Assembly: GCA_964016885.1 (NCBI GenBank)
Contig: OZ024748.1
Location: forward strand, 6,572,001 to 6,636,000
Direction: 5' to 3'
DNA: 64,000 nt
Origin: Eledone cirrhosa
Taxonomy: Eukaryota
How positions within the stretch are numbered: position 1 is the first letter of the stretch; each line of letters opens with the position of its first letter. The translations under genes and the position numbers were made by a program. The notes under the pieces are model-generated. The model searched no databases, had not been told where the DNA came from, and was given only the letters and a program-made list of their open reading frames with translations. Of the stretch, positions 3,486 through 58,217 are shown piece after piece.

Positions 3486-4000
3486 ATGGAACTCATTTAA
3501 CCATCTTTTGATCTTATATATTATGTATACTCCAGTCCTACAAACTGTAGAGTACTTCTTATCCGATATCTGCATTGCTTTATTGTACTACAATAAAACT
3601 CACCTCCTACATATATATATATATATATATATATATATATATATATTAGCAGAGAAGGATGGACGGACAAAATGCTTCCTTCACGTATGTAAAAATTAAC
3701 TTTTCTTCCCCTCTTTATATTATTTTTGTTATTATCATTATTTTCACTATTTGTAAAAATTAATACTTTCAAAAATTAATACTTTCAAATGTCACTAAAT
3801 ATATTATCTTCAACATTTTCTACAGAAAACATATTTTTCCCTTCTACTATTTGTTTATATATATATATATATATATATATATATATATATATATATATAT
3901 ATATATATATATATATATATATATATATATATATATATATACATACATGTGTGTGTGTGTGTGTGTGTGTATATATATATATATATGTATATATATATAT

Positions 4001-4066
4001 ATATTTATTAAAATAACAGATTAAAGTTTAAGCAAGAATTGCTGCTTTCACCCTTAACGGGATCTT
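4001..4066 (-). mobile_element. Family F fragment (3' half of hammerhead)
   Basis: Minus strand: AAGA-TCCCGTTAAGGGT-GAAA-GCA..TGC-TT-AAACT. Matches 22100-22165 and 58086-58142. Lies within (TA)n. Confidence 0.7.
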
Positions 4067-4098
4067 ATATATATATATATATATATATATATATATAT

Positions 4099-4363
4099 TA
4101 ACAAATAGAAACTATATTTATAAAACCATATTTATTTCATTATACATATTTCAAGGGCCACCAAGGTAAACTATGGTGCGCTTTCATCAGATAAAATATA
4201 ATATAGGTTAATTTTATAAATAAATATTGCCATACCCTTAAAAAATGCAACCATTCTGGTTGGAATCTCCTGGAAATATGTATAATGAAATAAATATATT
4301 TACTCCAATAATTTGTTGAGTGCTTTATATCAGTTCTAAAAATATTTTGCTTAACCTCTACGG
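4099..4363 (+). mobile_element. Hammerhead-bearing TA-inserted element, family B (5'-inverted)
   Basis: Inverted full hammerhead (4133-4198), then a plus-strand partial copy GAAATATGTATAATGAAATAAATAT (~4273-4297), then tail hairpin ACTC-CAA-TAAT-TTG-TT-GAGT-GCT (4302-4324). Flanked by (TA)n. Confidence 0.7.
4133..4198 (-). ncRNA. Type I hammerhead ribozyme (family B)
   Basis: Minus strand: TATTTTAT-CTGATGA-AAGCGCACCA..TGGTGGCCCTT-GAAA-TATGTA-TA-ATGAAATA. Stem I is 8 bp with one GU. Stem III ATATGTAT is self-complementary with GU pairs. Confidence 0.75.
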
Positions 4364-4440
4364 ATATATATATATATATGTATATATATATATATATATA
4401 TATATATATATATATATATATATATATATATATATATATA

Positions 4441-4518
4441 TAACGAAGGAAATGTGGTAAGGAACCAGGTGGACCATAACGCACCAAAGTACTCAATACT
4501 AGGGGTCTTACTAGTTCC
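4441..4518 (-). mobile_element. Family C 3' tail fragment
   Basis: Reverse complement of the family C tail (TTGAGTACT..GGTGCGTTATGGTCCA..GGTTCCTTACCACA) seen at 14256-14310 and 40203-40257. Lies within (TA)n. Confidence 0.75.
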
Positions 4519-54954: not shown

Positions 54955-55612
54955 ATATATATATATATATATATATATATACTAAATATATTGTAATTTG
55001 CCCTAGATTTTGTACTGTAATATGTGCACTATCATTACACCAGTTGTATGGTAATATCTATAAAATATTGAAGCCATTTCAATAATCAGACCTTATTTTT
55101 CCCAAATGAAGCGATTAATAGAAACAGTGGACATTACATCGAAACCAATCTACATGAATTTCGATCAGAAATTATACATAAGTTATATTTCTCATTGATC
55201 AATTCATCTAAAACTGCCTTCTGTCTCTCTGAATACATAATACATCTAACCACACTTATCTCCCCTGTCATCCTAATCCCAGCCATCTTAACACAGCTTA
55301 TACAATAAATATAGATTTCCTTCCCCTTCATACCGAATTACACGTGATCAGAATAATACCAGTACATTTCTAGGTATTGCTTCTATACATGTACACAAAA
55401 TTGTCTCTTTTCTCTAGGACGACAATACGACCATGACTGACGCAGAATTGTTAATTAGCATTTATTGATATTTATTTGCCTGCGTCTTCATCTTTTGTCC
55501 ACTTTCGCAACTTCTAGACCAGTAGAAAATATCGTTCCATGTTGGATAAAGAAGGTGTGAAAAAACAAAAATAAGAATATTTCCAGTGTTTGGTGTTAAA
55601 AACCTAAAATAT

Positions 55613-55790
55613 AACATACACAGTTATAGTTATAGACTCAAGAAACCTTTAAAAAAGGCAACATACACAGTTATACACTCAAGAAATCTTTAAAAAAGGG
55701 TTTACATATTCTGTTGCAATATCCTTTCAAATATGTTGCAATATCCTTTCAATATCCTTTCAAATATGTTGCAATATCCTTTCAAATATG
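55613..55790. repeat. Short tandem duplications
   Basis: AACATACACAGTTATA..CTCAAGAAA.CTTTAAAAAAGG twice, then TGTTGCAATATCCTTTCAA three times. Confidence 0.85.
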
Positions 55791-57713
55791 CTTCCGTTGC
55801 GTGCGAAGTTGAGCAGATGTTATCAACTATTGCCGTGGGTTAATCCAAGCCTTGTGAATGAAATTCGGTATATTTATGTAGAGGCCCAATTCATACATAT
55901 GACTGAATCTCTCTCACTCTCTCTCCCTATATATATATATGTATGTATGTAAAAGGTAAACAGAAATAACAACACAATCAGTACAGTATATGGAAGGAAT
56001 ATATTAGGTTAAATGTCAGATCGTTCTTCAGCTCTACTTAGTAACATGTAACTAATACAACCTGTGCATGGTCATGTCATCAGCGGCTAAACCGGCAGCC
56101 CTACCAAATTTGCTTGGTGAGGAAGGTGATTTGGACACCCTGCAGGAAGAGACAACGGCCATCCAATAAAGTTATTATTATTTTTTTTTTGTGGAGCGAG
56201 AGACCCCTAATCTTTAGGAGAAGATCACTCTGATATAAAAACCGACTTCGTTTCCATCCAATGATGTAGACCAGTTCTTTTTGAGCAAATGCATTCGATG
56301 TTCAGAGAGTGGGATTGGCCCCATGCAAAGCATTTCCTCACTTAAAAAAGCTTCAAACACAGACATCGTTTGATATGTGGCATATTTTGCGATGCATGGT
56401 ATTGCTGACCATAGGCAAGTCCCTAGCAGGATTAAAATGTTCAATGCTTTGTGAATTAATTTTGGCAGATATAAAGTATGTTTCGATTTCTTATATCCTA
56501 TTTGTGTACGTGAATATGAGCCTATGTGTGGTTATATTCATGTTTGTATGTATGTTTAGGTATTATGAAATCATACAAGGGAGTAAGAGTCAAAATATAT
56601 ACAGAGATACGTAATGATTTCTTAAACATACTTTCACCAACAGCTTACCAAGTCACATATTCCGCACCACGTAAAGTTAGAAAATCTATTAATAAAATAA
56701 GAAAACTCACTCTACCCGAAATAAATTTATAGCTACGTGTGTATGAACAAGGGAAACATGCATGAAGTATGATACTGGCTGTGCGAGAACACTTGTGTAT
56801 GTATATCTATTACAGCTGTTGTTAGGGACATAAAGAAGGTTGGTTGAGGGTCCACACGTAGATGTAAATATCAAATGAAAACGAAATATGTTGAAGGACG
56901 TGCGATATATAAAACGTTACTCACATTATACTCTCTCATAGACAAAATACCCAAATATATGCAGATATAGTCACAGACACTGACAACAGAGTCTTTCATT
57001 TACATATATGTATGTAGAGGGGAAAACTTACATATTTGACGAATGATATAAGCTTGCGTGGGCATATTTGAATATTTCGTGTATTTAATTTATTACTACC
57101 TGATTTATTCCAGACAAACTGTTGACCCAGACGTGTATAAACAGAGACCGAAGATGAATCAGCTCCTGAATTTCTGTTCAATATGATAAGCCGTGTCACA
57201 ATTAAAACAGCATTATACACCACACACAATAACATTCGAAATGCTACAGATTTTTTTTATATCGACTCACGAATACTCTGCAGCGTCAATTCTTGAAGAG
57301 CCTTGTTTAGAGAATGCTTTATATAAAAACATAAACTTACATACCTGTCTTGCGAATGACCTCGACCTCAACCACGACGTTATATTTTATTTTACGATTT
57401 TAATTTCTACCTATAAATAAATAATAACTTTTCTATCTTAAATATAGAGAATACTATTCAATCTAACTATTTTTCTTACATTTTCACACGATTTTCTTCC
57501 TGTCTCAGTCTAATCATTCTCGGTTCCTCGCTGTGTATTTCATTCTACCATTTAGCTCACTTCCTATTTCTCATCCAAAAACATTGATTTCCATAAAAAT
57601 ACTACGACCTTTTTAGTTAGAAAGCGAACTTCATATCTATTTAATCATGTAAGATACACCAGAATCATAGCCGTGATATCTAAAACAAACTAATGGATTA
57701 CTTCACAGCATTA

Positions 57714-57824
57714 TCAAATCCCGCCGAGGTTAACTTTGCCTTTCATCCTTGCGGGGTCGATAAAAATAAAGTACAAGTAATGTACTGGGTAATTGCTGGC
57801 CTTGTGCCAAAAGTAGAAACAATT
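57714..57824 (+). mobile_element. SINE family 1, 5'-truncated
   Basis: Runs from TCAAATCCCGCCGAGG to GTAGAAACAATT. Confidence 0.85.
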
Positions 57825-58085
57825 ATTATATAATAAAATAACATTTGATGTAATATATATATAATATATATATATAATATATTTTTATTTATAAAACATA
57901 ATATAATGTTTCATATAATATCATCTTCTATAAAATATCATATTAACTAATAGTATGTTATATTGTTGTATAATATACTAGATTATCGTAAAATATAATG
58001 TTGTATATAATATTCAATCATTAAGTTGCAATACAGAACATTTTATACAATTCTATATCATATAATTATATATATATATATATAA

Positions 58086-58217
58086 TAAAATAACAGATTA
58101 AAGTTTAAGCAAGGAATCAATGCTTTCACCCTTAACGGGATCTCCTATGGTTTTATATCTATATTATCCGTATCGAGCCCTCTTCGGATTTTAGTCTTCA
58201 CATTTATTATTATCCCT
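58086..58217 (+). mobile_element. Family F element, 5'-inverted copy
   Basis: Inverted 3' half-hammerhead (58086-58142) joined to the plus-strand tail (..CCGTA-TC-GAGC-CCTCTTCGGATTTTAGTCTTCA). Lies within (TA)n. Confidence 0.75.

Follow-up and report, generated by a model that had tools for sequence, protein, structure and literature searches.

The reverse transcriptases (RTs) of Penelope-like elements (PLEs) are sisters of TERT (PMC8557442). PLEs with an endonuclease (EN+) are built as head-to-head, inverted, truncated copies, often with a tail at one end only (PMC8557442, PMC3846280, PMC4209133). The Hydra clade, treated by Craig et al. in 2021 (PMC8557442), combines a (TA)n target, a sense-oriented hammerhead ribozyme in the pseudo-long terminal repeat (pLTR), inverted truncated copies and a one-end tail. 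The same combination is found in a set of insertions in a 64,000-nucleotide stretch of the Eledone cirrhosa genome (assembly GCA_964016885.1, contig OZ024748.1, positions 6,572,001 to 6,636,000 of the forward strand), hereafter the window and numbered from its first letter, in which a small bulged hairpin recurs. Comparison with complete Hydra-clade elements from outside the window indicates that this hairpin is a duplicated component of the 5' untranslated region (UTR). Each copy probably anchors the RT and sets an internal start of reverse transcription just 5' of itself; two hairpins would give two starts, and the segment between them would be the PLE tail.

Described Hydra-clade elements possess a coding open reading frame (ORF), unlike the window copies, which are non-coding ends only, and the window tails measure about 55-150 nt against the 30-40 bp quoted for PLEs generally. 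The available portions of PMC8557442 mention neither the hairpin, nor its duplication, nor a link to both ends. The only biochemical study of a PLE concerns PAc, a Poseidon element of Anolis (Frangieh et al. 2024, PMC11167929), whose tail is delimited by two internal RT starts downstream of the hammerhead. RNA located beyond the first start, on its 3' side, is needed there, the target is AT-rich and a dimer is predicted. Two ends bounding a tail downstream of a hammerhead are likewise found in the Hydra-clade loci, but PAc belongs to another clade, and its stem-loop is AC-rich and lies inside the ORF. The minimal hammerheads of PLEs and of non-LTR retrozymes (PMC4209133; bioRxiv 10.64898/2026.07.22.740005) are like those of the window in having type I cores and a short stem III. 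Unlike retrozymes, the window copies do not form tandem arrays, and the hairpin is separate from and downstream of the ribozyme. The words hairpin, stem, tail and initiation are absent from the available portion of the bioRxiv manuscript, and in PMC5737381 the sole mention of PLEs is in a reference.

The window consists of animal DNA that is rich in AT and dense in microsatellites, and its repeats were mapped by masked self-BLAST (Table 1). Most of the insertions are head-to-head pairs of an inverted, 5'-truncated arm and a direct, 5'-truncated copy; nine of ten such pairs have one tailed and one tail-less arm, the exception being the second insertion of family E (E2). The sequence-only reading had cited one hairpin from each of six families, A to F, and the letters and coordinates of all six are as it gave them. 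Three additional full hairpins occur at 14476 (A), 40185 (C) and 42413 (E), and partial or degenerate copies at 18285-18332 (minus strand), 22.9k (minus), 58144-58181 (plus) and 4.5k (minus). A strict rule (upper stem of at least 3 bp) yields eight matches from five families, whereas 60 block-wise dinucleotide shuffles gave 0.35 on average and never more than 2; family F, with only two clean upper pairs, passes a looser rule alone (10 matches versus 1.7 in shuffled sequence). The 3' bulge is 1 nt in family D and 2 nt in the others. The distance from hairpin to repeat, TA or ATT, is 24-76 nt, in agreement with the few tens of nucleotides originally reported. A position downstream of the hammerhead had also been claimed, and the two do lie on the same strand, but both core halves are present in the direct copy only in A1, D and E1: that of F retains a 5' half with one base changed, and those of B, C and E2 the GAAA half only. 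With the inverted arm of B included, both core halves are found in sense orientation in A, B, D and E, and are altered or partial in C and F. The cores are of type I, their stem III is short and palindromic, and they often occur as two copies on opposite strands.

Loci outside the window (L114-L244) were fetched by an RT motif alone, and the hairpin was not used in their selection; the sample contains at least 121 metagenome stretches (41 of them no longer than 632 nt) and 10 distinct genome-bin loci. Thirteen full ORFs of 700-751 amino acids have the motifs RWK, DKT, a CxCX5C linker, CxxC and CxH, and lack CCHH; DKS replaces DKT in 2 of the 13, and RWR is found in some. The units are shorter than 3 kb, about 2.4 kb, with a tandem period of 2427 nt in L118. 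Relatives of these proteins give matches to RVT_1, GIY-YIG and HTH_animal; direct Pfam scans of the proteins themselves were blank save for one weak GIY-YIG match, and a PDB sequence search was blank. Judged from the alignment of the 13 ORFs, the predicted proteins have the motifs by which PMC8557442 defines the Hydra clade, and on motif content the loci are attributed to it. Loci L235-L244 are animal-type Hydra-clade PLEs in bacterial genome bins, probably through host contamination; L235 and L236 form an inverted ORF pair within a contig of 491 kb.

When the sense strand of the 190 nt preceding the N-terminal motif of the ORF is scored, the hairpin is present in 20 of 26 intact 5' ends of these loci, with two copies in 13, against a shuffled expectation of 0.07 and 3 of 816 ORF-internal windows. 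Four antisense matches all come from loci with two sense copies. On the sense strand the motif reads RCUC-stem/loop-U[UAC]-GAGY-VCU-N-U, and the order of the 5' UTR is hammerhead, hairpin 1, spacer, hairpin 2, ATG and ORF, with about 45-75 nt from GAAA to hairpin 1, a spacer of 28-50 nt and 15-40 nt from hairpin 2 to the ATG. Inspection by eye of the six published Hydra consensi (PMC8557442 supplement) found the exact motif in three of them, placed in the tail of Hydra-2_Amil and Hydra-2_Ajap and twice before the ATG, in the 5' UTR, of Hydra-1_Ajap. Hydra-1_Crog has one variant in the tail and another at its 5' start, Hydra-1_Obim has a degenerate form at most, and Hydra-1_Amil ends before the hairpin. 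The family A hairpin of the window is identical to a 5' UTR hairpin of L121 at 25 of 27 nt, with an A-T closing pair in the former and G-C in the latter. A covariance model was built from outside loci only and was seeded with 12 hairpins of equal length, because MAFFT left the 5' arm unaligned; its six best window matches are B, C, C, E, F and E (E 0.004-0.07). No Rfam model matches the hairpin, which the sequence-only reading had not recognized as a named motif. The whole window has a single tRNA-like match at the gathering score, six full outside loci have one sub-threshold match (Trp_leader, E 0.78), and identification of the hairpin with any Rfam family was rejected for want of a covariance model match in either set.

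The six window families show no usable nucleotide similarity to one another beyond the hairpin motif. The description of them as otherwise unrelated is not supported, as they have one architecture in common with Hydra-clade PLEs; they are most likely diverged homologues. They look like truncated Hydra-clade PLE ends in (TA)n, an identity that rests on architecture because the window has no ORF of this kind. Specificity for the clade is covered in part: five 9-mers from the 3' strand of the motif, used to look for it in the Naiad and Chlamys consensi, give eight matches in the supplement, four in Hydra hairpins and four elsewhere that have no upper stem (one match, in a Naiad ORF, has ACTC and no stem). 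This word search may miss matches at the 70-letter line breaks, and it took in sets other than Neptune, Nematis and Poseidon. In viral contigs a related hairpin pattern matches 113 stretches, none with PLE motifs, a hammerhead or TA context, and the RT pattern matches 0. A hammerhead upstream of L127 was considered as a tail-less copy and dropped, as it appears to be part of another element.

Ten of the 11 tail-less arms in the window stop no more than 10 nt from where the hairpin begins: B at -4, C at -5 (three arms), D at -5, E at -3, F at -2 (two arms), and A at -9 and +1, the last being an overrun of the aligner (-7 by exact match). All tailed window ends enter (TA)n or (ATT)n, and the inverted arms of B and D end in other AT- or GA-rich flanks; four tail pieces start at or within the hairpin. 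Outside the window, 3' copies at the same locus stop 3, 4, 4 and 6 nt before hairpin 2 (L121, L137, L176 and L187, respectively), and that of L131 stops 8 nt before a relaxed form of the hairpin. Nineteen distinct 3' copies beside an ORF, with a hammerhead detected, were classified by eye: three are tandem with both hairpins, nine have hairpin 1 only, one has a variant and six have none. When junctions with (TA)n are placed on whole reference units, 12 of 20 informative ones lie on the 5' side of a hairpin at a distance of 10 nt or less, where 0.9 would be expected. The remaining eight comprise four in internal TA runs, three tail ends of family F in (ATT)n, for which the reference has no hairpin 2, and the junction of L171, roughly 10 nt short of a degenerate GCTC. 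The six positions from -9 to -4 contain a TA for 50 of 56 hairpins, compared with 65 of 232 spacer 6-mers. Hydra-1_Amil, as published, ends 4 nt short of the point where hairpin 1 begins in its relative L173. In sum, tail-less copies stop before hairpin 1, and tailed copies stop before hairpin 2. Locus L117 (1730-1766) also holds a copy whose 5' junction to (TA)n lies 3 nt before a hairpin, as expected of a unit-length or circular template or of a stall at the hairpin.

For one window family the second hairpin could be sought beyond the tail, where it had been predicted beforehand, by comparing family E with contigs from four public runs. One contig (run X7) matches the window to 32986 and, 2 nt later, enters a second hairpin that is complete and closed by G-C; a contig of run X8 departs from the window 7 nt before hairpin 1. 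Contigs over family E have loose ends of just 30 letters. Among them the closing helix is altered only in one contig of depth 2, and variants at the bulge and V positions still conform to the motif.

Covariation was assessed on 57 distinct hairpins from 36 loci, forming 35 families at 80% identity, that were anchored on sequence words so that pairing was not required. Upper pairs 1 to 4 are Watson-Crick in 49, 38, 32 and 23 of the 57, respectively, against permutation means of 26, 17, 14 and 15, in a count that retains about 11 mis-anchored rows; sliding the register by 1-2 nt, which corresponds to other bulge registers, gives far less pairing. After re-anchoring, upper pair 1 is Watson-Crick in 55 of 58 hairpins with all four types present, and pairing in the fitted alignment reaches 95.9%, versus 20-55% with slid partners. 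The first base of the bulge is always U, as is the second base after VCU in 57 of 57. The strong covariation sits in the upper stem. The closing pair of 58 outside hairpins is G-C in 53, A-C in 4, G-T in 1 and A-T in 0; the A-T/G-C exchange that had been called compensatory is thus real, but since only families A-E of the window close with A-T, it may be a single event in their lineage. The 3' strand of the motif, GAG-YR-CTC, is often near-palindromic, and the 3' strands of both hairpins could pair in an alternative fold.

The mechanism that we consider best able to account for these observations would proceed as follows. The RT-endonuclease protein would bind the bulged hairpin and VCUNU on the element RNA, and a nicked (TA)n target would pair, in the fashion of a telomerase primer, with the UA just 5' of the hairpin. 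The RT would then copy away from the hairpin, leaving the directing hairpin uncopied. A start at hairpin 1 would yield a tail-less end, and a start at hairpin 2 an end that carries hairpin 1 and the spacer, which together would make up the PLE tail. If a dimer used the two sites at two opposite nicks, the product would be a head-to-head pair in which one arm is tailed and the other is not. To make a tailed copy, the template would have to include hairpin 2 on its downstream side. The 5' UTR of an RNA that is tandem, circular or begun in the pLTR would provide this, and the tandem/pLTR build would thereby have an explanation. Conservation, covariation, duplication, strand, offset to both ends and TA enrichment are observed; protein binding, primer alignment at UA and the direction of copying are inferred. 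The full scheme is put forward tentatively, at a little under an even chance. In it, the RNA anchor of 20-30 nt is duplicated and lies downstream (3') of where priming occurs; the RT-endonuclease, dimeric and telomerase-like, would hold both anchors and start two cDNAs from UA sites at opposite (TA)n nicks.

The 3' stem-loops of stringent pairs of long and short interspersed nuclear elements (LINEs and SINEs), like the R2 3' UTR, precede the priming site on its 5' side, and each insertion receives a copy of them. The PLE hairpin is like them in being a short, structured RNA signal that is likely read by the element's own RT protein; unlike them, it would sit 3' of the priming site, is duplicated and would be lost from the end that it directs. 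Nor is it copied into every insertion, as tail-less insertions have no hairpin and tailed ones have no hairpin 2. The sequence-only reading had proposed a cis-acting recognition element for the RT in the form of a 3' hairpin analogous to those of LINEs and SINEs. A covarying cis-element tied to the mobilizing RT remains the best interpretation; the 3' placement and the analogy are not supported, as full elements carry the hairpin in duplicate in the 5' UTR and ends fall just 5' of it. For the same reasons the hairpin seen in the window tails is hairpin 1, likely carried along, the end having been set by an uncopied hairpin 2. In telomerase, a simple-repeat DNA primer aligns on an internal template position that is fixed by neighboring RNA structure. 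The proposed priming would resemble this, but the repeat-addition cycle of telomerase is not implied for PLEs.

Several observations weigh against priming directed by two hairpins. Within the window, the inverted arm of E2 ends 58 nt from the hairpin, a hairpin 2 beyond the tail is known for family E only, and that one comes from a single contig of depth 2.2 in a run labelled as another organism. No window family is joined to an ORF, and a Pfam scan of 150 of 209 candidate frames in the window found nothing relevant and no PLE ORF. Lone hairpins are marginally stable (z from +0.2 to -2.4 for eight window copies), and in families A and C the minimum-energy fold differs from that of the motif; the model built from outside loci misses families A and D. 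Among the outside loci, 6 of 26 intact 5' ends have no strict match (L174 and L179 have degenerate forms), and the main element of L239 is tail-less at both ends. The permutation values cited above are not true probabilities, because related families are not independent. G-U and A-C mismatches show no strand bias (closing A-C 4 and G-U 1; internal 2 versus 1), and these counts therefore do not separate RNA from single-stranded cDNA. Finally, PAc has no RCUC/GAGY-VCU word, and its starts are reported to lie within the stem-loop, without homology to the cut DNA (PMC11167929); with a different stem-loop sequence and starts of that kind, PAc is an analogue only. The Hydra-clade ends, by contrast, fall 5' of a UTR hairpin that is present in duplicate, at a TA like that of the target.

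In a rival reading, the form of the hairpin that matters would be single-stranded cDNA or part of a branched intermediate. The GIY-YIG endonuclease would recognize it there, cut at a TA a few nucleotides off and so resolve a longer tandem product into ends with or without a tail. The nuclease targets TA, so the end positions and the TA would be explained equally well, and the A-C closing mismatches (4 of 58) become G-T pairs on the cDNA strand. Craig et al. ascribe the tail to EN-mediated resolution (PMC8557442), and earlier work cited in PMC11167929 found the D. virilis tail to be needed for EN recognition of plasmid DNA. In PAc, however, the ends that bound the tail equal RT start sites measured in vitro (PMC11167929). 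Upper stems of 1-4 bp are, we infer, too weak to be extruded from double-stranded DNA, and the A-C cases may be decay, the second copy in L188 having G-C. Resolution by the nuclease is thus regarded as unlikely, though it is the strongest of the competing explanations. A still less probable one is that the twin hairpins are a protein-binding operator, serving to package the element's own mRNA or to control its translation, with ends nearby because UA-rich flanks prime well. Two copies situated 15-40 nt before the ATG would suit such an operator, and the operators of coat proteins are similar hairpins, short, weak and bulged, in which certain single-stranded bases are fixed. Yet the UTR is AT-rich throughout, and ends nonetheless cluster within 10 nt of the hairpins (12 of 20 versus 0.9), with TA enriched at one fixed offset. 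An operator function would be compatible with priming as a second role of the same hairpins.

That the hairpin is a chance match, a neutral remnant of common descent or a misread stem III of the hammerhead has very little probability left and is largely refuted. The motif is short, the 113 viral stretches match a related pattern by chance, and in several Hydra hammerheads ACTC-N-GAGT does form stem III. Against such readings stand the eight window matches versus 0.35 and the 20 of 26 5' UTRs versus 3 of 816 ORF windows; with covariation also present, neither an absence of covariation nor an equal frequency at random positions, the two outcomes named as fatal to the original proposal, was found. 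All four Watson-Crick types are moreover represented at upper pair 1, next to sequence that is unalignable. Stem III was rejected, as GAA directly precedes none of the six cited hairpins and the true stem III lies upstream.

Table 1. Hammerhead-associated insertions and hairpins in the Eledone cirrhosa window
Feature	Coordinates	Strand	Remarks
Family A, inverted tail-less arm	3251..3352	-	Hammerhead core 3344-3298; stops ~7 nt before hairpin position
Family A, hammerhead core of direct copy	3422..3468	+	5' arm of stem I damaged
Hairpin 1, family A	3529..3556	+	Tail extends to (TA)n near 3610
Family F, solo tail-less copy	4001..4064	-	Stops 2 nt before hairpin position
Family B, inverted tail-less arm	4128..4190	-	Hammerhead core; stops 4 nt before hairpin position
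Hairpin 1, family B	4302..4324	+	39-nt tail, then repeat
Family C, lone tail	4443..4506	-	5' truncation inside hairpin
Family D, head-to-head palindrome	12198..12331	.	Core 12265-12288 (+); inverted arm stops 5 nt before hairpin position
Hairpin 1, family D	12339..12360	+	1-nt bulge; 37-nt tail, then repeat
Family C, palindrome	14117..14232	.	Hammerhead 3' half; inverted arm stops 5 nt before hairpin position
Hairpin 1, family C	14238..14264	+	45-nt tail, then repeat
Family A, second insertion, inverted tail-less arm	14361..14465	-	Stops 9 nt before hairpin position
Hairpin 1, family A, second copy	14476..14503	+	Direct part starts only ~5 nt before hairpin
Family C palindrome and family F tail, chimera	18251..18441	-	Hairpin 18332-18285, without first base
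Hairpin 1, family F	22050..22098	-	Closed by G-C; long loop; remnant of a hammerhead 52-72 nt upstream
Family F, degenerate tail	22847..22943	-	
Family E, tail	32986..33064	-	(TA)n beyond in window
Hairpin 1, family E	33065..33127	-	Long inner stem-loop
Family E, palindrome	33136..33465	.	Core 33240-33199 (-); inverted arm stops 3-8 nt before hairpin position
Family C, second insertion, palindrome	40078..40176	.	Inverted arm stops 5 nt before hairpin position
Hairpin 1, family C, second copy	40185..40211	+	
Family E, second insertion (E2)	42278..42656	-	Hairpin 42413-42351; inverted arm stops 58 nt before hairpin position
Family F, tail-less arm	58078..58143	-	Stops 2 nt before hairpin position
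Family F, tail joined head-to-head	58144..58215	+	Begins inside 5' arm of hairpin
Family C, last 33 nt of tail	60890..60922	-	

Other features of the window insertions concern the joints within them. In the chimera at 18251-18441, the family C body meets the family F tail exactly at the 5' arm of the hairpin, which suggests template switching between families at this structure. At the center of the family E palindrome (33284-33308), the same upstream letters and a local strand flip are found in three runs, hinting at a natural fold-back stem at the point of 5' truncation, and the palindrome centers of three family C copies agree within a few bases. A different family of TA-inserted hammerheads (58392-58700 and 54707-54828; core 58633-58606, minus strand) has no RCTC/GAGY hairpin, and its copy at 58392-58700 is flanked by a short inverted copy of its own end. 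The motif is likewise absent from a short palindrome that adjoins (TA)n at 45929-45994.

The remaining repeats include two long inverted-repeat elements that enclose tRNA-like sequence (10473-11229 and 23883-24327, with the Rfam tRNA match at 10631-10688) and a SINE-like family of more than 12 copies (2437-2699, 18596-18812, 22734-22846, 35590-35804, 43564-43957, 60941-61162 and others). Two copies of a further sequence lie beside TA repeats at 6949-7109 and 31232-31650; they resemble the 3' end of a LINE, a class to which we presume they belong.

In full-text literature searches the motif, its duplication and the link to the tail were undescribed, in a scope that stopped short of older Penelope papers and Repbase entries, where a prior note is possible. 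The host elements fall within an established clade; what appears to be new is the cis-element, together with the rule of two hairpins. How PLEs choose their template and why the tail is optional and confined to one end has been a puzzle for two decades, on which the one in vitro study provided two internal starts in one element and no conserved signal. The motif described here is common to about 35 divergent families and to consensi from a coral, a sea cucumber and a copepod, and it lies at a fixed offset from both ends, which turns the question of the tail into assays by point mutation and hairpin shift. For curators, the hairpin is a marker of true ends and 5' UTRs in a clade that is abundant, with at least 2830 protein clusters, and poorly annotated. 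If the proposed scheme is true, the rule of one dimer and two anchors would yield the optional tail, the asymmetric head-to-head insertions, the swapping of tails between families and the need for a tandem or circular template, and the hairpin would be a portable tag for writing a chosen RNA into TA repeats. More broadly, the finding bears on how telomerase-related RTs fix an internal position on their template.

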